DNA of 30,828 nt from assembly GCA_031970015.1 (NCBI GenBank), contig DALYJE010000026.1, forward strand, positions 1-30,828, in the 5' to 3' direction. The stretch is from Coleofasciculaceae cyanobacterium CTOTU46609 (GTDB lineage: Bacteria; Cyanobacteriota; Cyanobacteriia; Cyanobacteriales; Coleofasciculaceae). Made by a program: the position numbers and the translations under genes. Shown piece by piece: positions 590 through 30,828 of this stretch (position 1 is its first letter; each line of letters starts with the position of its first letter). Under the pieces are notes generated by a model. The model did no database searches and was not told the DNA's origin. It saw only the letters and a list, made by a program, of their open reading frames with translations.

Positions 590-3500
590 ATGCCACAAGA
601 CTTTAGCTTGCAAAATTTAGTAGGACTAGATTTTAGCGGTCAAAATCTGACCGCAGCCAATTTTTTCAAATCCAGGATGGATGACTGCCTACTAATAAAC
701 ACAACCCTGGTAAGAACAAACTTTGAAGAAGCTACTTTACTGAATGTCAATGCAGTAGGTGCTAATTTTAATCAAGCCAATCTGTTTAAAGCTAGCATCA
801 AATCAACCAACCTGGAAAATGCAACTTTTGTTGATGCCATTTTGCGGGAAGCAGATCTGAGTGGCGAACAAGCTGAGTTTGAATCGGACACGATCGAGAT
901 TGTCAACACTGTCCTGCGGAACGCCGATCTGACCCGTGCCGATCTCTCCCTTGCTAAGCTGAAAGCGGCTAACCTTACTAATGCCAAGCTGATAGATGCC
1001 AATCTGCAAGGTGCTGACCTAGAATCGGTTCTTTTCTTCAATACGAACGCGACAGGTGCCGACTTCCGGCTGGCTAACTTCACCGATGTCGATCTTGGCG
1101 GCACGGTTATTTTTGACCTGGCGAATTTCAACGGTATAGCAATTACAGATACAGATCCTGTAATAGATCCCGACACTGGACTGCCAATCTTAACAACAAT
1201 CAGTTTTCGGGGTGCGAATTTAGCGGGAACTAGTCTAGAAGACGTTGTTTTCAGTAATGCTGATTTTCGCCCATTTGATGGTTGGCACAACGGCGTGCAT
1301 GTCATCCAAGCTACGGATTTGACAGGTATGAGTTTACCTGACTCTAACGTCAGTGGCAGTCAATTGAATGGGGCAATTTTGAATAACGTCTTCGGAGAAG
1401 ATCTGAATCTGAATGGCGTTGACTTCAGTCCCTATACTGCTTCTAATGGTCAGGTATTTCGGACTCAGCTAAACAGCGTAAATCTCAATTCTGCTAACTT
1501 CGTTGGAGCCAATCTTACTCAGGTCATAGCAGAAGACGCATATCTCAACGGAGCCGATCTCAGCAATGCCAGCTCAATCAATGCCGATCTCGATAGCGCG
1601 TTTATTCAGAAAAGCAATTTGACAGGAACCAACTTCACAGGAGCTAGCTTAGTTGGCGCTGACTTGAAAGAGGCTGTGGGAAATAACCTGACTAATTTTA
1701 CCAATGCCAACCTGAGTAGCGCGAGCTTGGAAGTTGGGAGCTTCATAGGTGCCAATTTCACCAATGCCAACTTGACTAATGCAATTTTAACCAAAGGTAA
1801 CTTCACCAATGCGACCTTTGTCGGGGCTAACTTGACAGGTGCGATCGCAGTTGATGTCATTGGTCTAACCCTTGGAGATGGCAATAATAACACCATCAAT
1901 GGTACAGCAGGGAAGGATAACATCTTCGGCTTTGGTGGCAGCGACAACCTGAACGGCAATGGGGGGGATGACTATCTTGATGGGGCGGCAGGTAATGATA
2001 CTCTCAACGGCGGGGCAGGCAATGACACCATCCAAGGTGGCACGGGTAACGACACCTATATTGTCAATAGCAGTGGCGACGTAATTATTGAACTTGCCAG
2101 CCAAGGCACTGATACTGTTCAGTCTAGCGCCACTACCTATACCTTAAGCAGCCATGTAGAAAGACTGACTCTTACAGGTACAGCTATAGAGGGTGTTGGC
2201 AACGATCTCGCCAATACGATAACAGGTAACGGCAGCAACAACAACCTCAAGGGAGAAGCAGGCAACGATACTCTCAGTGGTGGTGCTGGTAATGACACCC
2301 TGGATGGTGGCACAGGTAATGACTTGATGAGTGGTGGGACAGGTAACGACACCTATATCATCGATAGCGCTGGGGACGCGATCGCAGAAAGCCTGAACGA
2401 AGGCACTGATACAGTCCGCTCTAGTCTTGCCAGTTATACCCTGGGTGCCAATGTAGAAAACCTAACCTTGATTGGCAGCGCCCAAAATGGCACTGGTAAT
2501 GGAGTTGCTAACGTCATCACGGGCAACGAGAGCAGCAATATTCTTAACGGATTTGGTGGCAACGATACCCTCAGTGGTGGTGCCGGAGATGATACCCTTG
2601 ATGGCGGCGCAGGCAATGATGGGATGAGGGGTGGTTTGGGCAACGACACCTATATTATTGATAGCGCTGGAGATAGCATTACTGAAAATGCTAATGAAGG
2701 CACGGATATAGTGCAATCTAGCCTTGCTAGCTATACCTTAGGCAGCAATTTGGAAAACCTGAGTTTGATTGGCACTGCCCAAAATGGCACAGGTAACGAG
2801 CTTGACAACACCATCACAGGTAATGAGCTGGACAATATCCTCGACGGAGGTAGTGGTAATGATACCCTGATTGGTGGTTTAGGCAACGACACCTATATTA
2901 TTGATAGCGCTGGAGATAGCATTACTGAAAATGCTAATGAAGGCACGGATATAGTGCAATCTAGCCTTGCTAGCTATACCTTAGGCAGCAATTTGGAAAA
3001 CCTGAGTTTGATTGGCACTGCCCAAAATGGCACAGGTAACGAGCTTGACAACACCATCACAGGTAATGAGCTGGACAATATCCTCGACGGAGGTAGTGGT
3101 AATGATACCCTGATTGGTGGTTTAGGCAACGACACCTATATTATTGATAGCGCTGGAGATAGCATTACTGAAAATGCTAATGAAGGCACGGATATAGTGC
3201 AATCTAGCCTTGCTAGCTATACCTTAGGCAGCAATTTGGAAAACCTGAGTTTGATTGGCACTGCCCAAAATGGCACAGGTAACGAGCTTGACAACACCAT
3301 CACAGGTAACGAGCTGGACAATATCCTTGAGGGAGGTAGTGGTAATGATACCCTAATCGGTGGTTTAGGCAATGACACTTACATTATTGATAGCACTGGG
3401 GACGCGATCGCTGAAAACCTTAACGAAGGCACCGATACTATTCTTTCTAGCCTAGAGAGCTACACCTTAGGCAATAACCTGGAAAATCTGGTACTGGTAG

Positions 3501-4099
3501 GCTTGGCTCAAAACGGTACTGGTAACGAACTCGCCAATACCGTGACAGGCAATGAAGGTAATAACAGCCTCAATGGAGGAGGTGGCAATGATATCCTGTT
3601 TGGCAATGCTGGTGCCGATACCCTTACAGGAGCAGCCGGTGCAGATACCCTTGATGGTAGTGAAGGGGATGATAACCTCAACGGTGGTGTAGGAACGGAT
3701 TTGCTCCTAGGTGGTGCAGGCAATGATGTTCTCACTGGTGGTGATAGCAATGACATTTTAGTAGGTGGTATCGGCAATGACACCATTACAGGCGGTGCAG
3801 GCAGCGATACGATTCGCTATGCCAATAGTGATGGCCAAGACAGAATTAACGCATTCACCGCAGGCGTAGGTGGAGACATCCTCTCATTCAGCGGCATGAC
3901 TACTGCGCTTGATGTCCGCCTAGTCACCACAGCCACGGCGGGTACTAATACACAAATCCGAGTCAGCGATGGCATTAGTGGAAACTCAGGTTTTGGACAA
4001 GGGGAATTGTTAATGACTCTGATTGGTGTCGCCTTGACCCAAGCGGATATCACCACCAACGTTGACGCAACTAACAGACCTACTTTCCTGTTCTCCTAA
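590..4099 (+). CDS. Secreted pentapeptide-repeat plus RTX (haemolysin-type Ca-binding) repeat protein. Probable T1SS substrate.
   Basis: The N-terminal ~420 aa show A(D/N)LxxA(N/D)L pentapeptide periodicity. Many GGxGNDxL nonapeptide repeats are interleaved with HCBP-related modules of the form TDTVxSSxxYTLxxNxENLxL. The C-terminal GG(D)xIxxFxxG..D segment is T1SS-target-like. ATG start. Confidence 0.85.
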   Translation: MPQDFSLQNLVGLDFSGQNLTAANFFKSRMDDCLLINTTLVRTNFEEATLLNVNAVGANFNQANLFKASIKSTNLENATFVDAILREADLSGEQAEFESDTIEIVNTVLRNADLTRADLSLAKLKAANLTNAKLIDANLQGADLESVLFFNTNATGADFRLANFTDVDLGGTVIFDLANFNGIAITDTDPVIDPDTGLPILTTISFRGANLAGTSLEDVVFSNADFRPFDGWHNGVHVIQATDLTGMSLPDSNVSGSQLNGAILNNVFGEDLNLNGVDFSPYTASNGQVFRTQLNSVNLNSANFVGANLTQVIAEDAYLNGADLSNASSINADLDSAFIQKSNLTGTNFTGASLVGADLKEAVGNNLTNFTNANLSSASLEVGSFIGANFTNANLTNAILTKGNFTNATFVGANLTGAIAVDVIGLTLGDGNNNTINGTAGKDNIFGFGGSDNLNGNGGDDYLDGAAGNDTLNGGAGNDTIQGGTGNDTYIVNSSGDVIIELASQGTDTVQSSATTYTLSSHVERLTLTGTAIEGVGNDLANTITGNGSNNNLKGEAGNDTLSGGAGNDTLDGGTGNDLMSGGTGNDTYIIDSAGDAIAESLNEGTDTVRSSLASYTLGANVENLTLIGSAQNGTGNGVANVITGNESSNILNGFGGNDTLSGGAGDDTLDGGAGNDGMRGGLGNDTYIIDSAGDSITENANEGTDIVQSSLASYTLGSNLENLSLIGTAQNGTGNELDNTITGNELDNILDGGSGNDTLIGGLGNDTYIIDSAGDSITENANEGTDIVQSSLASYTLGSNLENLSLIGTAQNGTGNELDNTITGNELDNILDGGSGNDTLIGGLGNDTYIIDSAGDSITENANEGTDIVQSSLASYTLGSNLENLSLIGTAQNGTGNELDNTITGNELDNILEGGSGNDTLIGGLGNDTYIIDSTGDAIAENLNEGTDTILSSLESYTLGNNLENLVLVGLAQNGTGNELANTVTGNEGNNSLNGGGGNDILFGNAGADTLTGAAGADTLDGSEGDDNLNGGVGTDLLLGGAGNDVLTGGDSNDILVGGIGNDTITGGAGSDTIRYANSDGQDRINAFTAGVGGDILSFSGMTTALDVRLVTTATAGTNTQIRVSDGISGNSGFGQGELLMTLIGVALTQADITTNVDATNRPTFLFS
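2641..3369 (+). repeat. three near-identical 243-bp (81-aa) tandem modules inside the RTX gene, with more diverged copies from about 2040 to 3600
   Basis: Direct nucleotide comparison: copies at 2641, 2884 and 3127 are identical except for a few bases. The period is 243 bp and in frame. Confidence 0.9.
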
Positions 4100-4314: not shown

Positions 4315-5565
4315 ATGGCTATCAAAAATGGAACAGAACTGCCCGATACTCTTACAGGTACTACGAACGCCGACACGCTGCGTGGTTTTGGCGGCGACGA
4401 CCTACTAAATGGTTTAGGCGGTAATGACCTGCTCCGAGGCGGGAACGATAAAGATACCCTGCTTGGTGGAGGTGGCGCTGACAGGCTCTTTGGGGATGCA
4501 GGCGAGGATTCTTTGTATGGTGAAGCTGGCAATGACACCCTCTATGGCGGGACGAGCCTTAGCGATGTTCTTGATGGCAAAGACCTCCTTGATGGTGGTA
4601 GTGGCAATGACTGGGTATATAGCGGTTTCGAGGATACCGCGATGGGTGGTGCGGGAAATGACACTCTGGTTGGTAGTTTATATAATGATCTGCTATACGG
4701 CGATGATGCAGAGGGTTTCGTTCTGGGTGGTGCTGACTCGCTCGTAGGTGGAGATGGCAATGATACCCTTTACGGCGAAGCTAACGACACCATTAGCGGT
4801 GGCAACGATACCATCTTAGGCGGAGGTGGCGATGACGTTCTCTATGGCTATGCCGGTAATGACTCCCTCGTGGGCGGTGATGGTGTTGATACCCTCGTCG
4901 GTGGCGACGGCAACGACGTTTTAGATGGCGGCGCTGGCTCCAGTACACTGTTGGGCGGCGCTGGCTTAGAAACCATCACGGGTGGTGTTGAAAGTGACTA
5001 CATTGATGGTGGCGAAGGCGTTGACAGCCTTTTAGGTGGCGGTGGTGATGACACCATTTATGGGGATTTCGGAGTAGCAGATTCGTTGTCTGGCAATGAT
5101 GTCCTCAATGGTCAAGCCGGAAATGACATCCTTGATGGCGGCTTTGGTGCCGATCGCATCATCGGAGGCGCTGGCTTTGACATTCTCTATGGTGGTGAAG
5201 ATGGAGAAACCCAAACCGCCCGCGATACGCTGACTGGCGGCGCTGATGCTGACCTATTCCAGTTGGCAAGCACAGACTTTTTGCTAGAGCCTGTTGAGCC
5301 TAGTTTCCCACCAGAACCCGTACCACCAGAACCTGTTGGCGACCTGATTACTGATTTCCAGGATGGGATCGACTTGATCGAGTATGAGTTTGTCAATGAC
5401 TTTAGTGAATTGATTATCATTGGCAACGGTACTTCTAGCGTTACTATCAGCGTTGTGAATCAAGGTATCCCTGGAGAAATACCTGACTACACAGAATTGG
5501 TCGCTCAGTTGAATGGGGCAGGTGGCTCCATCATCACGCTCACAGAAGCAGACTTCCTGATTTAA
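4315..5565 (+). CDS. RTX/haemolysin-type calcium-binding repeat protein
   Basis: GGxG(N/D)DxL repeats run through most of its length. A proline-rich linker PEPVPPEPV precedes a C-terminal domain. GAGGA lies 9 nt before the ATG. Confidence 0.85.
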   Translation: MAIKNGTELPDTLTGTTNADTLRGFGGDDLLNGLGGNDLLRGGNDKDTLLGGGGADRLFGDAGEDSLYGEAGNDTLYGGTSLSDVLDGKDLLDGGSGNDWVYSGFEDTAMGGAGNDTLVGSLYNDLLYGDDAEGFVLGGADSLVGGDGNDTLYGEANDTISGGNDTILGGGGDDVLYGYAGNDSLVGGDGVDTLVGGDGNDVLDGGAGSSTLLGGAGLETITGGVESDYIDGGEGVDSLLGGGGDDTIYGDFGVADSLSGNDVLNGQAGNDILDGGFGADRIIGGAGFDILYGGEDGETQTARDTLTGGADADLFQLASTDFLLEPVEPSFPPEPVPPEPVGDLITDFQDGIDLIEYEFVNDFSELIIIGNGTSSVTISVVNQGIPGEIPDYTELVAQLNGAGGSIITLTEADFLI

Positions 5566-8826: not shown

Positions 8827-8877
8827 GCCTGGTCTTAGGTAGTAAATTATCAATGGGTAATGGGAATTAAAGAACAA

Positions 8878-22049: not shown

Positions 22050-25000
22050 TCAATAACCAAACATCGCTAAACCCCCTACGCCTAACACCCCAGCGAAAGC
22101 TGCAACTGCGACGGAAGTAATCGCCGTACCAAACAACCACCAAGCTGCGGTTGCAGCGGCTTTTCGGGTTTCTTTCAGTTGCTTCTTAGCCTTATGTTTG
22201 AGTTCTTTAACTCGTTTTTGAGCTTCCTCTTGCAGGCGTTCGGCGCGGCTGAGTATGCTATCGCGCATCCCTTCAATTTGGTTGACGATCCGATTAGCAT
22301 CTGCCTGGGAGATGTCCTCGCGGGAACTCAAGATCGCTACCAAGGTATCCCGATCGAATTGACTCAGCCGATCGCGCAGCGCTTCCAATCCCGCTTCTGG
22401 ATCGTCAAACAGCTTGCGCAAGTCTCCCTTAATCCCTTCATAGTTTAGTTCGGGGCGATCGAGGGAGTTGAGGTAATTCCGGATTCTGCCAAAAATGCTG
22501 TCCATCGCAGATTGGACTTGGTGTTGGACAGCTTGCACTTGTTCGACCAACTGATGGCGAACGGAGTCGATATTATCCGCAATTCGGTTCGCGTCCTCCT
22601 CGGAAATATCCTCCCGTTGCGATAGCAGTGCCACAAGGGTATCCCGATCGAACTGCGCAAGGCGATCGCTCACACTCTTCCACCCTGCTTGGGGGTCTTT
22701 AAATAACAGTTGCAAGTCTCGCTCGATCCCTTCGGGATTGAGTTCTTCTTTGTTGGTATTCCGCAAGTACTCTTCAAATTCGGCTCGGTAATCCCGTACC
22801 GTATCTTTAGCACGACTGGCCAAGCGTCGCGGTGCTTTGATAATGCTGCGAATCGCATCCTGTACGCGATCGATAATCCGATTCACTTGCTCCTCGCTCA
22901 AGTTTTCCCGCTGACTAAGAAGTTTGACCAAGGTGTCCCGATCCACTTCCGAGAGCCGTTCGCGTAGTGCTAATGCTCCTGCTTTCGGGTCATCTAGGAG
23001 TTTTGCCAAATCCTGCTTGATGCCTTCGGGGTCGAGTTCATCCAGATTGGTGTTCCGCAAATACTCGGCAATTTGATGCGTCAGGCGATCGTACTGCTCC
23101 TTAGCCTTACCTGTTAATTCTTGGGGTGCATTCAGGATGCGATCTCGCACTTCTAAGAAGCGATCAATAACCTGATTAATCTGTTCCTCACTCAAATCGC
23201 CGCGCTGACTTAACAATTGCACCAGCGTATCGCGGTCAAATTCCGAAAGCCTTTGCTGTAAAGCTTTTAGTCCTGCTTGGGAGTCATCTAGGATAGTTTG
23301 CAAACCTCGCTTGATGCCTTCAGGATTTAGTTCTTCTTTGTCGATCTCGCCCAGGTAGGATTCTATCGTTTGCCTGAACTCTTCTGCTTTAGATTTTGCT
23401 TGGTCTTGCAGATTTTGAGCCTGTGACAAAATGCGATCGCGAGTGCTTTCCAGTCGCTCGACAATTTGATTCGCTTCCTCTTCACTCAGGTCTTGACGTG
23501 CTGCTTTAAGCATCTGCACTAAGGTGTCGCGATCGAACTGCGAGAAGCGATCGCGCAGTGCATCAATACCAGCCTCTGGGTCTTCCAGAAGTGCTTGGAA
23601 ATCGCGCTCAATACCTTCTGGATTCAGTTCTTCTTTACCCGTCCCGGCTAGATAGTTTTCAACCCTACTACGGAGGTCTTGCGATCGCTGTTGACCTTCA
23701 GACTCTTGCACCAAGTTATATACTTCCGTCCGCAGTTCTTCTAGCTGATCTGCAATCTCAGAAACGCGCTCGGAGTCGAAGTCACCCCGCTGATTCAGCA
23801 GTTGTACGAAGTAGTCTCGATTCAGTTGCTCTAGCTGCTGGCGAACGATGCCTGAAGCTGCTTCCACGTCATAGATAACGTCTCTAAATTCCTGTTTAAT
23901 CGTCTCTCGATTCAGGTGCCAAGGTTTGGAATTGAGCAGGTAGTTTTCAACATCTGCCTTAATTGTGTTGAAGGGTTGATGCAGTATCTGATCAGCAACC
24001 TGAGTGGAAAGGGTTTTAGCTTGCTCGGTTGCTTTATCTTTGAACTGTTGCAACTGGCTAGAAATTTTTTCCACATCTAGATCGGAGAGATCTGTCCGCG
24101 TCAGTACTCTACCCACTAGAGCGCTAATACCCAGTTGCAAGGCTTGTTCCCCGAAGCCACCATTGCCATTACCGCCATCGGATTTGCTCGAGCCAACTCC
24201 AACTAGTTGTCCGAGCCTATCGCTAAGCCGATCGGAGGTTAGCTCTTCTGGACTGGCAGACTCAAGGAAATTGAGCAGTTTTGCCTGCGGATTAATCTGT
24301 TGTTGATGACCCAATACTTGCTGCCAAGCAGCTTCTAGTTGGTCTGCAATCCGATTAACGTCTTGTTTGGATAGATCTGTACGACTGCTAATTAAATCAA
24401 CGAACGTCTGACGGTTCACGTTTTGCAGAATGTCACTATCAGCAATAGACCTCAACTCCGAACCAATGAGCAAATTTTCAAAATCCTTGCGAATTTGTTT
24501 GAGGTCTAACTTGGGTATTTGCAGATCGGCGACGTAGTCTTGTAACGTCTCCCGGACGCGAGTCGGGTTAACCGCACCCCTCAATTCGCGGCGAACAGCA
24601 GCTACAGATGCATCGACCGTATTGACAATCTGAGCGTTTGCCGCTCTGCCACCTAGAGCTGTAGCTACTACAGCCATGACTCCTTGCCAGCTTGAACCAG
24701 CTGTACTAGCAACGGAACCTACAATAGAACCAATCCCCCTCGAACTAACCCACAGTAGCAGCAAGAAGTATGCTGACCAGATCACAACGCCTGTAATGCC
24801 TCCCAGAATCAGGCTGTTAATTAAGGTCAGTTTCACGGCCAGAAAACACGCCATGAATAAGGCAATGTTGACGGTAACTAAAGCCCATGCCCCTACCTTG
24901 GATTCAACTACGCTAATCTTACCACCCCAGGTTTCGGCCTCCTCAGCCTCTAAGGGATTCTCCCCGGCTGAAATGCCTGCGGCGAGCGTGAAATTGGTTA

Positions 25001-25190
25001 ACAAAAATTGGAAAGCAAACGCCATGAGTACCCCAGCAATCAAGGCGATAAAAAATTGCGATCCCGAAAAGACCAGTGCCCCCTGTTCTGGAGTATTAAT
25101 GACTCCAGACGCGGTCGGATCTGATGGCATTTGGGCAAGCCAGAGTGGTGCGTTGCACAACCCTAGCAACATTCCCACACTTTGAAACAT
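22050..25190 (-). CDS. large membrane-anchored repeat protein. An N-terminal polytopic TM region is followed by about seven helical repeats of roughly 100 aa and a C-terminal TM helix.
   Basis: Hydrophobic stretches at the N-terminus (about four) and the C-terminus. The recurring unit is EELNPEGI..D...LL.DP.AG..ALR.RLS.FDRDTLV.LLSQR.DLSEE..N.I.DR. No family recognised. Confidence 0.7.
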   Translation of the reverse strand: MFQSVGMLLGLCNAPLWLAQMPSDPTASGVINTPEQGALVFSGSQFFIALIAGVLMAFAFQFLLTNFTLAAGISAGENPLEAEEAETWGGKISVVESKVGAWALVTVNIALFMACFLAVKLTLINSLILGGITGVVIWSAYFLLLLWVSSRGIGSIVGSVASTAGSSWQGVMAVVATALGGRAANAQIVNTVDASVAAVRRELRGAVNPTRVRETLQDYVADLQIPKLDLKQIRKDFENLLIGSELRSIADSDILQNVNRQTFVDLISSRTDLSKQDVNRIADQLEAAWQQVLGHQQQINPQAKLLNFLESASPEELTSDRLSDRLGQLVGVGSSKSDGGNGNGGFGEQALQLGISALVGRVLTRTDLSDLDVEKISSQLQQFKDKATEQAKTLSTQVADQILHQPFNTIKADVENYLLNSKPWHLNRETIKQEFRDVIYDVEAASGIVRQQLEQLNRDYFVQLLNQRGDFDSERVSEIADQLEELRTEVYNLVQESEGQQRSQDLRSRVENYLAGTGKEELNPEGIERDFQALLEDPEAGIDALRDRFSQFDRDTLVQMLKAARQDLSEEEANQIVERLESTRDRILSQAQNLQDQAKSKAEEFRQTIESYLGEIDKEELNPEGIKRGLQTILDDSQAGLKALQQRLSEFDRDTLVQLLSQRGDLSEEQINQVIDRFLEVRDRILNAPQELTGKAKEQYDRLTHQIAEYLRNTNLDELDPEGIKQDLAKLLDDPKAGALALRERLSEVDRDTLVKLLSQRENLSEEQVNRIIDRVQDAIRSIIKAPRRLASRAKDTVRDYRAEFEEYLRNTNKEELNPEGIERDLQLLFKDPQAGWKSVSDRLAQFDRDTLVALLSQREDISEEDANRIADNIDSVRHQLVEQVQAVQHQVQSAMDSIFGRIRNYLNSLDRPELNYEGIKGDLRKLFDDPEAGLEALRDRLSQFDRDTLVAILSSREDISQADANRIVNQIEGMRDSILSRAERLQEEAQKRVKELKHKAKKQLKETRKAAATAAWWLFGTAITSVAVAAFAGVLGVGGLAMFGY

Positions 25191-25513: not shown

Positions 25514-28500
25514 TTACTCAGGGCTAGCCGTCAAGTCAATAATTTCTTCAAACTGGAAGTTATTAACTAAATCCTTAAGCGCTTCGATGAGGGAAGCGTA
25601 CTCTTGAGGAATTTGCGCAACCAAGCCTAAAACTAGCTCGTCGTTACATGCCATGGCGGCATTGTGTAGTTGTACGACCCACTGGGTTGGTAGTTGAGCA
25701 AAGTAACGTTTAATTTCAGCCGATGTCATCATCTCTGGAGTATTTTGGCTAGCGCTTTGGGTGTTGATGGTTTGCTCTTCCCAAACGTAGATGGCCCCTA
25801 GGTGTTGGCTCACTTTTTCTAGTAATACTTCCTCTCGAAATGGCTTGCCCACAAAATCATCACAGCCTGCTGACAAAATCATCTGTCGCTGATCCTCAAA
25901 CGTGCTGGCTGTCAGGGCAATAATTTTAGTTTTGGGGCGCGGTAATTGGTGATAGGTAATTGTTGCTAGGGAAGCTTGTCCTGTAACGTGAGAATTTTGA
26001 GTTGGGAATTCCTCATCCCTCACTCTTTCCTGCTCCCTCGCTTTAATATAACGGGTGGCTTCATACCCATCCATGACTGGCATTCGCATATCCATGAAGA
26101 TGAGGTGGGGTTGCCAAGTTGCCCACAACGCGATCGCTTCTCGTCCATTTTCTGCCTCTCGCACCAGAAAACCGATGGATGTGAATAGCGCGACTACTAC
26201 TAGACGGCTCTCAAAGCGATCGTCAACTACTAAGATGCGATAGTCAGGTTGGTTTGGTGCTAAACCAGTTACTTGACATTTGGTTGGCGTTGTCTCAACA
26301 TTAATGGCCTCAGTTAGCGCTACCTGGATATTAAAGGTAAAAATACTGCCCTTACCTAGGATACTGCTAATGCTGATATCTCCTCCCATGAGCTGAACGA
26401 ATTTGCGGCTAATTGGTAAGCCTAATCCAGTCCCTTGCTGAGATTTTCGGCCTGTTTCTGTTTGCCCGAAAGGTTCAAATAATAGGTCAATTTCAGTAGG
26501 AGCAATGCCGGAGCCTGTGTCTTCTATTTCAAATATAATGGTTGTTTGTTGTTGGTTGTTGGTTGTTGGTTGTTGGTTGTTTTTGGGAAGTTTTGCTCTT
26601 AAAAAGACATGTCCTTTGTTGGTAAATTTAATGGCATTTGAGAGGAGGTTAATTAAACAAGATCTTAGTTTGCCTTCATCGGTTTTTATGTAGTCGGGCA
26701 GGTTGGGAGCAATTTCAAAAATTAGCTTTAAACCCTTGGATTCCGCTCTTAAGCGAAACATTTGTTTCACAGAGTCTAACAAGTGAATTAAGCTAAAGCA
26801 ATTTTCCGACAAGGCAATTCTGCCTGCCTCGATTTTGGACATTTCTAGGACATCGTTGATTAAATCTAACAGATGCTCGCCAGCGCGATTAATAATTCCC
26901 AAGTATTGCTGATGCTTAGCAGACAGGGATGAATCGCGATTCATGATTTGAGTAAAGCCGAGGATGGCGTTGAGTGGAGTACGTAATTCGTGGCTCATAT
27001 TTGCTAAAAATTCGCTTTTAGCGCGGTTGGCGGCATCGGCGGCATAGACAGCTTGTTGCAGTGCTGTTGACTGTCTTTGGGTTTCTTCTAGCAGTTCTGC
27101 CTGTTGTAAGGCAACTCCTAGCTGATTGCCAATTTGCACAACGATATTAATTTCTGCTGTTTTCCATTGGCGGGCACCAGAATTTTGATAGGTTGCTAGT
27201 AATCCCCAAAGTTGACTGCGGCAGAAAATCGGTACGGTAACGTAGGCTCTCGCTTGAAATTGCTCTAACAGCTGAACGTAACAGCTGGGAAACTCCGCCT
27301 GATAAATGTCTGGAACGCACAGGTAATTTACACCTTGGCGGTAAGCACCGCCTTTGGTGTCTTGCAGGTAAGTGTCTCGTACTAGGTCATCAATGCTAGT
27401 TAAATTTTTTACATGACAAAGAGAGTCTTCTAGAGTATTTTCTGTAAAGGTAGCGTCATAGTGTTGCTGCCTCATGAGAGAAATCCACTTACCCCCTACC
27501 GACTCGGCAACGAACTCTCCACTCCAGTCGGGATTGAACCGATAGACGACAACGCGATCGCAATTAATCACTTGGCGCAATTCTTGGGTGGTAGCGGTGA
27601 ATATCGCTTCGATATCCAAGGTTTGGCGCATTCTTTGGATGACTTTAGCGATCGCTCTTTCCCGCTGAGCCATCTGTCGCAGGGTTTCTTCTGCCTGTTT
27701 GCGTTCGGTGATGTCCCGTCCTTCCGCAACTAGGAACATCACGTTATGACTGGAGTCCAAGACGGGTTTGACGGAAAAGTCAATGGTGGTAAAGGTGTAT
27801 CCTGCACCTCGAATATCAACTTCATAACGAACAATGCTACCTGCCGCAGCACGAGTGATCGCTTCTTGCAATTGTTGCTGTTTTGGCGACAGACGAGGCG
27901 CGTTCTTTCTGGGATACTTGCTTGTCTTTTTACGTTTTCCAGGTTCAGTCCACCATCGGGTTTCCCAAAATGGACTCCCAACTGCCTCGGATAGTTCACT
28001 CCCAGCAAAGTCAAGAGCCGTTTGATTGGCATCTAGCAGGGTGCCATCGGGTTGTAATACTGCTGTAAATTGGAAACTGGAATTAAAAATAGCGCGAAAT
28101 CGCTGTTCGCTCTCGCTGAGCGCAGCTTCGGCTTGTTTCTTGTCGCTAATATCAAAAATTACGCCATCAAGCCATAGTAGTACCCCGGTGGCATCAAAAA
28201 TGCCTCTGCCTTTTTCGTAAACCCAAGCAATGCTGCCATCGGCTCGCATCATTCGATAATCGATCAGGAAAGGTTGTCTATTGGCTACACTTTCCCAGAC
28301 TATTCTCTGAACCTGATGTCGATCGTCGGGATGGATGATACTGGCAAAGGTGCGCACTTGATTGTTAATAAAATCGTTGGGTGGATAACCGGAAATTTCT
28401 AAAATGGCCGAGCTGATGAACGCCATCGTCCAGTCAGCATCGCAAAGGCAGCGGTAAACAGCGCCAGGGATATTGGAGACTAATGTTCTAAACCGTTCTT

Positions 28501-29914
28501 CTCGTTCTCGCAGCGTTGCCTCGGCTTGCTTGCGATCGCTGATATCGGTGTTAGAGCCTACCATGCGCACGGGGACTCCTCGTTCATCCCATACAGCCTG
28601 TCCTCTGCCCAAAATCCACTTATAACTGCCATCTTTGCACCGCAAGCGATGCTCAACGGCGTAATGGGGAATTTGGCGATCGAGGTAAGCTTGTTTGGTG
28701 GTCATCACTCGGTCGATATCCTCGGGATGGATGCGATCGAGCCATTCATTATTGTTATTTTCTATTTCGTGGTCTTCATAACCCAACATTTCTTTCCAAC
28801 GGGTGGATCGAAAGATTTCTCCAGTAATTAGGTTCAAGTCCCATATTCCGTCATTATTGCCCTTGAGGACTAACTGCCAGCGTTCTTCAAGTTGTCGAAT
28901 GGCAGCCTCTGCCTGTTTGCGTTCTCGTGCTTCAATGGCTAACGAAACTAAATCTGCCAGGGAGCGGGCGAAGTTCTGGTCTTCTGGCGTCCAGTGACGA
29001 GCAGCACCGACCTGTTCTAAGCATATAACTCCTGCCGTTTGCCCCTTGATCTGGATGGGCGTATCCAGCATGGAGGCAATGCCTAAGGGGGTCAAATAAG
29101 ACTCGGAAAATTCTCGGGTTCTCGGATCGGTGTGAGCGTCATCTGCTGCGATCAGCTGGTCTTGCTGTAAGGCTTGAAAATAGGTTGGATAGTTTGTTGC
29201 TAGCAGTTCAATGCCTGCACTATGCTGGTTACCACTCTTCTCAAATAAGTCAAGGCACTTAATTTTACTACCTGTGTCATCATAGATCCATATGCTAGAG
29301 CGTTCGACATCGATATTATAAGCACTAGCTTCTGTAATCTCTTGTAAAGCAGCTGGAAAATTTCCCTGATTTAAAGCTGGACTTTTGGCTAGTTGTGCCA
29401 AACTTAGGTTGTGATTGCGTAGCTTATGGGCACTCTCTGCCAAGGCTTCTTGGGCGCGTTGGCGTTCTGAGATTTCCCGTTGCAGTTGTAGGGTTTGTTC
29501 CCGCAGCGATAACCGCTGGCGCACGATGGTTAACTGATTTTCTACACGGGCTATGACCTCTTCAATTTGAATTGGTTTGCTAATGTAATCGACACCACCG
29601 ACGCTAAAGGCTTTTACCTTATCCAACCCCTCATCGAGCGCACTTAAGAAGATCACCGGAATCTCGCAGGTAGTTTCGCTGGCTTTGAGTTGTTGGCAAA
29701 CTTCATAGCCATTCAGATCGGGCATCATGATATCGAGCAAAATTAGATCTGGCGGATCGCAACGGGCTACAGTCAAAGCTAGTTTGCCGTTAATGACTCG
29801 ACGAACTTCATAGCCGTACTGTGTAAGCAGTGAGGATAGCAGGTGCAAGTTTTCCGGGACATCATCAACGATTAAGATGTCTCCTTTCGGTTGGGAAGTG
29901 CGATCGCTAACCAT
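25514..29914 (-). CDS. multidomain hybrid sensor histidine kinase (REC, coiled coil, GAF, PAS x3-4, GAF, HisKA, HATPase_c, REC, conserved C-terminal module)
   Basis: N-terminal receiver ILIVDDVPENL...LLDIMMPDLNGY. The H-box is MSHELRTPLNAILGF. G-boxes GTGLGL are present. The C-terminal receiver is ILVVDD...FMDMRMPVMDGY. ATG start. It overlaps the upstream gene's stop by 8 nt. Confidence 0.9.
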   Translation of the reverse strand: MVSDRTSQPKGDILIVDDVPENLHLLSSLLTQYGYEVRRVINGKLALTVARCDPPDLILLDIMMPDLNGYEVCQQLKASETTCEIPVIFLSALDEGLDKVKAFSVGGVDYISKPIQIEEVIARVENQLTIVRQRLSLREQTLQLQREISERQRAQEALAESAHKLRNHNLSLAQLAKSPALNQGNFPAALQEITEASAYNIDVERSSIWIYDDTGSKIKCLDLFEKSGNQHSAGIELLATNYPTYFQALQQDQLIAADDAHTDPRTREFSESYLTPLGIASMLDTPIQIKGQTAGVICLEQVGAARHWTPEDQNFARSLADLVSLAIEARERKQAEAAIRQLEERWQLVLKGNNDGIWDLNLITGEIFRSTRWKEMLGYEDHEIENNNNEWLDRIHPEDIDRVMTTKQAYLDRQIPHYAVEHRLRCKDGSYKWILGRGQAVWDERGVPVRMVGSNTDISDRKQAEATLREREERFRTLVSNIPGAVYRCLCDADWTMAFISSAILEISGYPPNDFINNQVRTFASIIHPDDRHQVQRIVWESVANRQPFLIDYRMMRADGSIAWVYEKGRGIFDATGVLLWLDGVIFDISDKKQAEAALSESEQRFRAIFNSSFQFTAVLQPDGTLLDANQTALDFAGSELSEAVGSPFWETRWWTEPGKRKKTSKYPRKNAPRLSPKQQQLQEAITRAAAGSIVRYEVDIRGAGYTFTTIDFSVKPVLDSSHNVMFLVAEGRDITERKQAEETLRQMAQRERAIAKVIQRMRQTLDIEAIFTATTQELRQVINCDRVVVYRFNPDWSGEFVAESVGGKWISLMRQQHYDATFTENTLEDSLCHVKNLTSIDDLVRDTYLQDTKGGAYRQGVNYLCVPDIYQAEFPSCYVQLLEQFQARAYVTVPIFCRSQLWGLLATYQNSGARQWKTAEINIVVQIGNQLGVALQQAELLEETQRQSTALQQAVYAADAANRAKSEFLANMSHELRTPLNAILGFTQIMNRDSSLSAKHQQYLGIINRAGEHLLDLINDVLEMSKIEAGRIALSENCFSLIHLLDSVKQMFRLRAESKGLKLIFEIAPNLPDYIKTDEGKLRSCLINLLSNAIKFTNKGHVFLRAKLPKNNQQPTTNNQQQTTIIFEIEDTGSGIAPTEIDLLFEPFGQTETGRKSQQGTGLGLPISRKFVQLMGGDISISSILGKGSIFTFNIQVALTEAINVETTPTKCQVTGLAPNQPDYRILVVDDRFESRLVVVALFTSIGFLVREAENGREAIALWATWQPHLIFMDMRMPVMDGYEATRYIKAREQERVRDEEFPTQNSHVTGQASLATITYHQLPRPKTKIIALTASTFEDQRQMILSAGCDDFVGKPFREEVLLEKVSQHLGAIYVWEEQTINTQSASQNTPEMMTSAEIKRYFAQLPTQWVVQLHNAAMACNDELVLGLVAQIPQEYASLIEALKDLVNNFQFEEIIDLTASPE
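26551..26578. repeat. heptanucleotide microsatellite (GTTGGTT)x4 with degenerate extension, inside the kinase HATPase_c coding region
   Basis: Read directly. On the coding strand it is AACCAAC repeats, giving the NNQQPTTNNQQQTT insertion. Confidence 0.85.
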
Positions 29915-30828
29915 TACTTATTAAATCAATTATTTCATCAAGACGGAAATCGTTAACTTTCTGGCCTATCCCTTCAGCTAGAGCCGCATATTCTGAAGGA
30001 ATTTGCTCAATCAGCTTCCAAATGTCTTTTTCTCTAGCCGAAACTGCGGCAGCATAAAGCTTAGCAACCCATTCAGCAGGCATCTGGGCTAAAGCTTCCT
30101 TTAAACAGGGTACGCTAGGTGATGCTAAATTTGCTTTGAATTCGCCATTGGCCGTTTGGGGTTCATCATGTAAGGGAGCTGGTTCTTCGTAAATATAGTG
30201 CACCCCTAAATATTGAGACATTTTCTCCAAAATTTCTTCCTCTCGGAACGGCTTGCGTACAAAATCGTTACATCCAGCAGACAAGGCCAGGTGGTAGTCT
30301 TGTTCAAAAGCGTTAGCTGTCAAGGCGATAATGGTGGTTTGAGGCTGGGGAGTCGTGGGGGACAACTCATGATGTCTAATCTGCTTAGTCGCCTGGTAGC
30401 CATCCATCACGGGCATTCGTATATCCATCCAAATTAGGTGTGGTTGCCAACTTGACCATAAGGCTATAGCATCTTGACCATTTTCCGCTTCTCGCACTGT
30501 AAAACCTGCCGTTGTGAGGAGATGAACTAATAACAGGCGGCTTTCCCAACAATCCTCAACCACCAAGATGCGATAGTTGGGTTGGCGAGGTGCTAGGGCA
30601 ATTGCTTGACGCTGGGGTTGTGTGGCCTGAATCTCAGCCGCTTTTCCCAGGCTAACCTGAATATCGAATTGAAAAATCGCTCCTTGGCCTAATTTACACC
30701 TTACCGATATATCCCCTCCCATCAGTTGCACGAATTTGCGGCTAATGGCTAAGCCTAATCCCGTGCCTTGCTGAGATTTGCGCCCCGTTTCTGTTTGTCC
30801 AAAGGGTTCAAACAGGAGATCGATTTCT
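29907..30828 (-). CDS. hybrid histidine kinase paralogue, 3' portion (end of HATPase_c, REC, conserved C-terminal module). The 5' end lies beyond the window.
   Basis: The listed start at 30731 is an internal GTG. The frame stays open to the window edge. Nucleotides 30732..30828 are homologous to 26400..26480 of the neighbouring kinase (G2 box GTGLGL region). Confidence 0.8.
   Translation of the reverse strand, partial: EIDLLFEPFGQTETGRKSQQGTGLGLAISRKFVQLMGGDISVRCKLGQGAIFQFDIQVSLGKAAEIQATQPQRQAIALAPRQPNYRILVVEDCWESRLLLVHLLTTAGFTVREAENGQDAIALWSSWQPHLIWMDIRMPVMDGYQATKQIRHHELSPTTPQPQTTIIALTANAFEQDYHLALSAGCNDFVRKPFREEEILEKMSQYLGVHYIYEEPAPLHDEPQTANGEFKANLASPSVPCLKEALAQMPAEWVAKLYAAAVSAREKDIWKLIEQIPSEYAALAEGIGQKVNDFRLDEIIDLISNG

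Follow-up and report, generated by a model that had tools for sequence, protein, structure and literature searches.

The subject of this analysis is a heptanucleotide microsatellite in a 30,828-nt stretch of contig DALYJE010000026.1 from Coleofasciculaceae cyanobacterium CTOTU46609 (the whole stretch is called the window below), where six head-to-tail units, five AACAACC and one AACAACA, lie within the ATP-binding HATPase_c domain of a hybrid histidine kinase. The array is probably a microsatellite resembling the short tandemly repeated repetitive (STRR) sequences of cyanobacteria, generated by slippage and tolerated in a permissive surface hairpin between the N box and the G1 box of the domain (the N-G1 loop), where it would act as a hot spot for changes in loop length and for loss of function. 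The evidence comes from the array itself and its place in the kinase, from the enrichment of heptamer arrays in the same loop across the kinase family, from a difference of six versus nine units between the window and its closest orthologue, and from natural one-unit frameshift alleles in sister arrays.

Tandem Repeats Finder reported the array at 26539..26581 with a period of 7, 6.1 copies and 94% matches. Direct reading of the + strand at 26540..26581 gave GGTTGTT, TGTTGTT and four further GGTTGTT units in that order, so that the coding (-) strand carries AACAACC x4, AACAACA and AACAACC. An earlier note on this DNA had described a tandem heptamer on the non-coding strand of the HATPase_c region, and in its register the exact (GTTGGTT)x4 spans 26551..26578; Tandem Repeats Finder, direct reading and shuffled sequences all bear this out. 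The longest perfect run is 4.9 units, and the purity of the array falls in the top tenth among comparable arrays. With up to three mismatches allowed, a three-unit probe matched the window solely at this array, the only AACAACC array within the 30.8 kb, and none of 100 dinucleotide-preserving shuffles gave any match to the same probe. The array is genuine and non-random. It begins in phase 0 at codon 1112 and encodes NNQQPTTNNQQQTT, two seven-residue units (NNQQPTT NNQQQTT, aa 1112-1125) set in the reading frame as ...LPK NNQQPTT NNQQQTT IIFEIEDTGSGI..., and the insertion rich in Q, N, T and P that the note had described is thus present in an intact 1466-aa open reading frame (ORF).

Pfam searches of the kinase found, in order, REC, GAF, several PAS, GAF, HisKA (aa 965-1031, 3e-22), HATPase_c (aa 1079-1198, 7e-24) and a second REC, followed by a C-terminal domain. 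The HATPase_c (GHKL) domain has its N, G1, F and G2 boxes in this order and lies 3′ of HisKA, and the array sits 76% along the gene. The first 1031 residues of the kinase are 100% identical to the partial protein P0001 of 'Cyanobacteria bacterium UBA9273', the homologues of the kinase are all cyanobacterial, and the HIP1 sequence GCGATCGC occurs 37 times in the window against about 0.5 expected. The window is therefore cyanobacterial by both HIP1 and homologues, and period 7 leads among the tandem repeats of related loci, in agreement with the earlier view of heptamer repeats as a cyanobacterial trait.

Between the N box and the G1 box, two strands come after the N-box helix, and the insert fills the loop of the beta-hairpin that connects them. 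At this site a phmmer alignment with solved kinases showed 7z8n to be 7 residues shorter and 7p8e to be about 60 residues longer than the window kinase. An AlphaFold2 model of aa 950-1218, made with 51 aligned sequences (mean predicted local distance difference test score, pLDDT, 86; predicted template modelling score, pTM, 0.78), gave helices and strands as expected for the domain and placed the insert between strands 153-159 and 174-183 in segment numbering, and the ten-residue block 161-170 had a mean pLDDT of 64, with most other blocks higher and many above 90. The insert had earlier been assigned to the ATP-lid area. This placement was rejected because the lid is the segment between the F box and the G2 box and comes after the G1 box, whereas the insert comes before it; box order, the phmmer alignment and the model all put the insert between the N box and the G1 box.

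In the mechanism that we propose, replication slippage would create and maintain the heptamer array, which would occupy a structurally permissive beta-hairpin of the catalytic and ATP-binding (CA) domain. Since seven is not a multiple of three, three successive units would be read in all three phases and would yield a 7-residue N/Q/P/T peptide repeat that serves as loop filler. AACAACC can be tolerated in a coding strand because it contains no stop codon in any phase. Selection would retain frame-preserving alleles, that is, three-unit changes, and single-unit slips would also arise and destroy the kinase, so that the array would be a mutational hot spot, with changes in loop length as one outcome and loss of function as the other. 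Unit changes in the window array were simulated. Gain or loss of one or two units introduced a stop 3-8 codons past the array and gave products of 1123-1134 aa, as had been foreseen for one-unit changes, and changes of three units kept the frame. The truncated products retain the sensor domains, the dimerization and histidine phosphotransfer (DHp) domain and the N box, and they lack the G1, F and G2 boxes, the second receiver and the C-terminal domain. Restart of translation would not yield a functional CA domain, because the next in-frame methionine is aa 1176, past the G2 box.

The position of the array in the kinase is one at which heptamer repeats are concentrated throughout the family. 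Among 232 homologues with recognisable boxes, the spacer from N box to G1 box ranges from 21 to 114 aa, and its fillers are unrelated sequences of low complexity. We surveyed 80 cyanobacterial loci (1.465 Mb) from GTDB genomes, using scan peptide patterns that exclude the array, and found period 7 to be by far the commonest tandem period, with 318 arrays. N-G1 loops had 1.60 such arrays per kb, compared with 0.066 per kb for the rest of the coding DNA and 0.86 per kb for non-coding DNA, so that the loops carry about 24 times the density of other coding DNA and at least that of non-coding DNA. When the best DNA periodicity was scored in 97 loops, it was 7 in 8 and 8 in 1, with no other period between 3 and 12. 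Arrays in the loops and arrays in non-coding DNA were alike in copy number, percent matches and length of the perfect run.

The units that fill the loops of homologues include ACTGGGG, CCCCAAT and the octamers GGGGAGCA and GGGGAGAT; STRR1-like ACTGGGG arrays occur in the N-G1 loops of two Nostoc homologues (L005 and L061), and Moorena homologues carry 15-nt arrays encoding TNLQP. Arrays of the window type are also present in kinase loops of other genomes, as A/C-rich AACAAAC or AACAACC repeats that recur directly ahead of the second strand (TIxFEVxDTG), and similar AAC-rich arrays stand at the same loop position in homologues that are only 47-55% identical. At the protein level, motifs of the NNQQPTT/NKQQTTN kind (at least 6 of 7 positions; NN[KQ]Q[QP]TT type) were found in 19 of 311 distinct loops and in 18 of 330,322 windows from the rest of these proteins. 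More distant homologues, of 62-69% identity, show no such peptide; their loop sequences are unrelated, and some end in relic-like strings such as DNGQLT or TNNQGQ. Length change in units of the encoded peptide was seen within one 90% cluster, where P0272 carries two more 7-aa units than P0012, in frame, and N box and G1 box were in frame in all 97 pairs from GTDB representative genomes.

Two further observations were made on repeats in these kinases. Short palindromic inserts, CTTCGGCAAGCTCAGGGCAAGCC (TLRQAQGKP) and CACCCCGCGAAAGCGGCGGCGCAGCC (HPAKAAAQP), occur within the heptamer arrays of several unrelated kinases (the loops of L092/L093, L086 and L088, and P0216), and they may be tiny mobile elements. 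At the N-terminus of an orthologous kinase (proteins P0281 and P0273, in the cluster of P0005), the 24-nt repeat encoding SDNPTGIP is present in eight tandem copies in one read-derived sequence and in a single copy in another.

Comparison with the closest orthologues showed a difference in loop length at the array site. These orthologues (P0023 and P0392, at loci L092 and L093) share 74-80% amino acid identity with the window kinase and lie in a tandem gene arrangement like that of the window. At the site of the array they carry (AACAACC AACAACA)x4 followed by AACAATT, that is, 9 units and 21 residues in place of the 6 units and 14 residues of the window, and the frame is kept because the difference is exactly three units. 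This bears out the earlier proposal that in-frame changes of three units would alter the loop. Variants of the window array at strain level were sought in several ways. Protein searches with the C-terminal 469 aa of the kinase found nothing above 69% identity and no strain-level array variant, a GTDB genome scan gave a best match of 54% identity, and a degenerate scan of Joint Genome Institute (JGI) metagenomes for both array flanks with a variable gap between them returned 0 matches.

Alleles that differ by a single unit and lose the frame were found in the arrays of relatives. In the orthologue, the array concerned is a second one, in the loop of the C-terminal receiver (~3740..3790 in L092), which is the counterpart of 25941..25970 in the window: L093 carries (ACCCATT)x3 in an intact 1206-aa gene, and L092 carries x2 in a frameshifted one, whose product stops at residue 1066, with the remainder encoded in a different frame. 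Aligned over 6451 bp, the two contigs show 99.66% identity and one gap only, of 7 bp. The other case lies in the N-G1 loop itself, in a more distant homologue: L083 and L084 carry (GGGGAGAT)x4 and a gene intact at 688 aa, and L081 carries x3. Over 4261 bp, a single mismatch and a single 8-bp gap separate L081 from L083, and the L081 gene is broken into two ORFs (327 and 364 aa). Both L081 and L092 are short-read contigs assembled at k=119, and assembly collapse is unlikely because the arrays are far shorter than the k-mer. A frame-blind scan of metagenomes for two AACAAMC units followed by FE[VI]EDTG recovered six loci, of which four are in frame; L087 is out of frame, with its N box and G1 box in different frames and the arrays between them, and L089 has only a 3′ fragment, beginning at the array. 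Split genes at the array-bearing loops of L082 and L091 were not counted, as these are long-read contigs with about 5x coverage and likely indel errors.

The loop arrays also coincide with breaks in assemblies. Short-read metagenome-assembled genomes often stop or have a gap at or near N-G1 loop arrays: P0243/P0244 and P0390 of UBA8543 end inside an array, and P0001 of UBA9273 stops some 80 aa short of it. The break between P0243 and P0244, a 'partial' pair from UBA8543, coincides exactly with the array; it was set aside as probably an assembly gap and not a frameshift. Of 108 newly fetched matches to the C-terminal part of the tandem kinase upstream of the window kinase, 64 lack the N box, and many of these, including some on long contigs, start within the N-G1 loop or immediately after it. 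Loop arrays may lie behind much of the 'partial' or split annotation of cyanobacterial kinases.

In a rival reading, the array would be an evolved contingency locus, in which slippage would reversibly toggle the kinase between its full length and a truncated form lacking the ATP-binding boxes and the receiver, so that cells or filaments differ in signalling. We consider this unlikely. The non-triplet unit with its 4.9 perfect copies and high purity, the truncation within 3-8 codons of a one- or two-unit change, the natural off alleles, one unit shorter, of the orthologue (second array) and of a homologue (N-G1 loop), and the out-of-frame boxes of L087 are all as a switch would have them, and AAC-type arrays recur at one position in homologues of only 47-55% identity. 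Set against this, no variant of the window array was found in the protein, GTDB and JGI searches, and all 97 pairs in representative genomes are in frame. The loop arrays are neither longer nor purer than intergenic ones, arrays are equally common in non-coding DNA, and the window array lies three quarters of the way into its gene, far from the 5′ end. Many cyanobacteria are oligoploid or polyploid, which would buffer recessive frameshifts and slow phenotypic switching, and pseudogenes would be expected in any case in a kinase family of such size and redundancy. The short array, its position 76% into the gene, the representative genomes free of out-of-frame pairs and the buffering by oligoploidy are the reasons for which we disfavour an evolved switch. 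Passive tolerance is favoured because array density, copy number and purity match those of non-coding DNA and because the units vary widely among homologues. Of the frame-shifting switch that the earlier note had envisaged, one-unit off alleles were seen in the arrays of relatives, and reversible, frequent and beneficial switching of the window array would be hypothetical. The broader proposal that the N-G1 hairpin, and to a lesser extent the receiver loop, is a built-in microsatellite slot in which slippage of 7-8-nt units reversibly switches single members of a very large sensor family on and off is, in our judgement, quite unlikely. If it were true, filaments or populations would carry a stochastic, heritable mosaic of signalling repertoires, and a free-living phototroph would possess a contingency system of which the window array is a relatively pure member, currently ON.

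Selection could instead act on the N/Q/T-rich peptide, for example as a flexible or interaction-prone linker, with the DNA periodicity secondary. Near-identical peptides (NNKQPTTNNQQQTTIIFE) at the same position in a homologue of only 47% identity and the strong enrichment of the motif in the N-G1 loop speak for it, but the units match one another in their nucleotides, at synonymous positions too, other homologues fill the loop with unrelated repeats (ACTGGGG, CCCCAAT, GGGGAGCA octamers, 15-nt TNLQP), those at 62-69% identity have no such peptide, and model confidence in the segment is low, and so the peptide is improbable as the selected element. It is more doubtful still that a small mobile element, and not slippage in place, left the insert behind: relatives carry the palindromic inserts CTTCGGCAAGCTCAGGGCAAGCC and CACCCCGCGAAAGCGGCGGCGCAGCC in their arrays, but the window array is a pure head-to-tail heptamer with no such insert and no terminal inverted repeats, and the difference of 6 versus 9 units is what slippage would give. 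An assembly or sequencing artefact is scarcely credible, even though related short-read assemblies often break at or near arrays (P0243/P0244, P0390 and P0001), since the kinase ORF is intact, equivalent arrays are present in independent assemblies of the orthologue, and the 42-bp array is far shorter than a sequencing read. Gene conversion between the tandem paralogues was also considered as the source of the array, and a recent event of this kind was rejected, as the DNA shared by the two genes is only 72% identical and has synonymous differences.

Several points weigh against our preferred explanation, the tolerated slippage microsatellite. The off alleles are the assembled consensus in two independent short-read assemblies of natural material, and some switching role is possible because two consensus off alleles exceed the expectation for rare deleterious slips. 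Recurrence of similar AAC arrays at one position in homologues of 47-55% identity could reflect selection, on the peptide or on the array, and not simple tolerance. The enrichment figures use a coding mask of ORFs of at least 150 aa and not curated gene calls. Finally, instability of the window array itself is inferred from the orthologue and from sister arrays.

The array has clear likenesses to known repeat systems. The classical heptamer units of filamentous cyanobacteria are STRR1 CCCCAGT, STRR2 TTGGTCA and STRR3 CAACAGT. The window array resembles these STRR sequences in its head-to-tail 7-nt units, its cyanobacterial host, the dominance of period 7 in related genomes and the presence of a second dispersed heptamer, CAATTAC, within the window. 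It differs in that its unit, AACAACC, matches none of these three sequences, and in that it is translated and lies inside a catalytic domain, whereas published heptamers are described as mainly intergenic (PMC4692102). An excess of heptamer simple sequence repeats (SSRs), most of it in intergenic DNA, is known from Nostoc and Xanthomonas, whose ORFs have fewer of them than expected (PMC4692102, which also cites heptamers of Calothrix), and heptamers are reported to be the most abundant tandem period in the intergenic DNA of many prokaryotes, with no clear function (PMC6344855). Indels of coding-region SSRs and phase variation are well described in pathogens (PMC3315296, PMC8262952), among them the SSR contingency loci of Haemophilus and Neisseria, such as the heptanucleotide repeats that precede hmw1A (PMC8262952, PMC3315296). 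The present case shares with these loci a non-triplet SSR, a shift of frame on unit change and one-unit alleles among the near-identical sequences of relatives, but the window array has only 6 units, lies deep in its gene, belongs to a free-living phototroph and represents a class of arrays whose density is like that of non-coding DNA. The solved hybrid kinases 7z8n and 7p8e have the same insertion point between N box and G1 box, and their hairpins differ from the cyanobacterial loop in having unique sequence where the latter is filled by 7-, 8- and 15-nt microsatellites. The phase-variable tandem repeats of Mycobacterium tuberculosis (PMC12817950) are likewise coding and vary in copy number within a lineage, although organism, repeat types and genes are different. 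A literature search of incomplete coverage returned no report of a concentration of heptamer arrays in the kinase N-G1 loop or of phase variation by SSRs in cyanobacteria, nor any description of cyanobacterial kinase alleles frameshifted at an SSR. The window array itself is an ordinary cyanobacterial heptamer SSR, and there is weak evidence that what is new lies in where it sits, in the hot spot shared across the family and in the frameshift alleles found in nature.

These results matter in several respects. Heptamers concentrate in one permissive kinase loop and are there translated into 7-residue repeats, which provides a concrete case for asking whether SSR-driven switching exists beyond host-adapted pathogens. 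If the arrays are merely tolerated, they are still a clean example of the evolution of a protein loop under a genome-specific mutational bias. Loop arrays would account for many of the contig breaks in cyanobacterial assemblies and of the kinase genes called as split or 'partial', and they are likely to be usable as strain-typing loci. The features of the window that bear on the array are collected in Table 1.

Table 1 Positions in the window of the kinase gene, the heptamer arrays and the tandem neighbour
Feature	Position	Strand	Remarks
Hybrid histidine kinase, intact, 1466 aa	25514..29914	-	ORF, Pfam, homologues
N box NLLSNAIKFT, aa 1089-1098	26621..26650	-	Upstream edge of variable hairpin; helix 131-147 of model
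Heptamer microsatellite	26540..26581	-	Encodes NNQQPTTNNQQQTT, aa 1112-1125
G1 box DTGSGI, aa 1132-1137	26504..26521	-	Downstream edge of variable hairpin
F box to G2 box, the ATP-lid segment (FEPFGQTETGRKSQQGTGLGL), ~aa 1146-1165	26420..26479	-	No repeat
Degenerate heptamer-derived insert, C-terminal receiver loop	25941..25970	-	CAATTAC CTATCAC CAATTAC C..., peptide TITYHQLP
CAATTAC x2.9, dispersed copy of receiver-loop heptamer	8875..8894	.	Between convergent genes
Upstream tandem paralogue, 3′ part	29907..30828	-	Cut by window end just after G1 box

Heptamers also concentrate, less strongly (0.61 arrays per kb), in the loop of the C-terminal receiver, and in L029 this loop contains 11.4 copies of CAAACAA. 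The CAATTAC heptamer of the window's receiver loop is found at two sites in the window, and at 8875..8894 the array overlaps the stop codon of a class-V aminotransferase gene (8878..10071, -).

The portion of the upstream paralogue contained in the window starts EIDLLFEPFGQ..., past its own G1 box, and the N-G1 loop of this paralogue lies outside the window, so that the note's statement that the paralogue lacks the insert goes beyond the letters of the window. A search with the in-window part gave a best match of 61% identity and did not recover the paralogue's loop. At the orthologous locus L093, from another genome, the loop of the upstream tandem paralogue is short and has no array, which agrees with that statement. 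The stop codon of the upstream paralogue falls 8 nt inside the start of the kinase gene (29907..29914), and the tandem overlapping pair is kept in both L092 and L093, an arrangement that suggests co-transcription and translational coupling of the two hybrid kinases.

Other genes of the window have features of their own. An 878-aa ORF at 10261..12897 (-) is a clear homologue of the Major Vault Protein in a cyanobacterial window, with Pfam matches to the Vault repeat (2.4e-67) and MVP_shoulder (2e-54) as well as to Vault_2, Vault_3 and Vault_4. The 1046-aa protein encoded at 22050..25190 (-) has hydrophobic N- and C-terminal segments and about eight internal repeats of ~95 aa with the pattern LNPEGI...DP.AG..ALR.RLS.FDRDTLV.LLSQR.D.SEE, with no Pfam family above the cut-off. 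At the other end of the window, a 243-nt tandem repeat (2630..3473, +; 3.5 copies, 95% identity) lies inside the gene for a 1169-aa protein (590..4099) with pentapeptide and RTX calcium-binding repeats, and a second RTX protein is encoded at 4315..5565.

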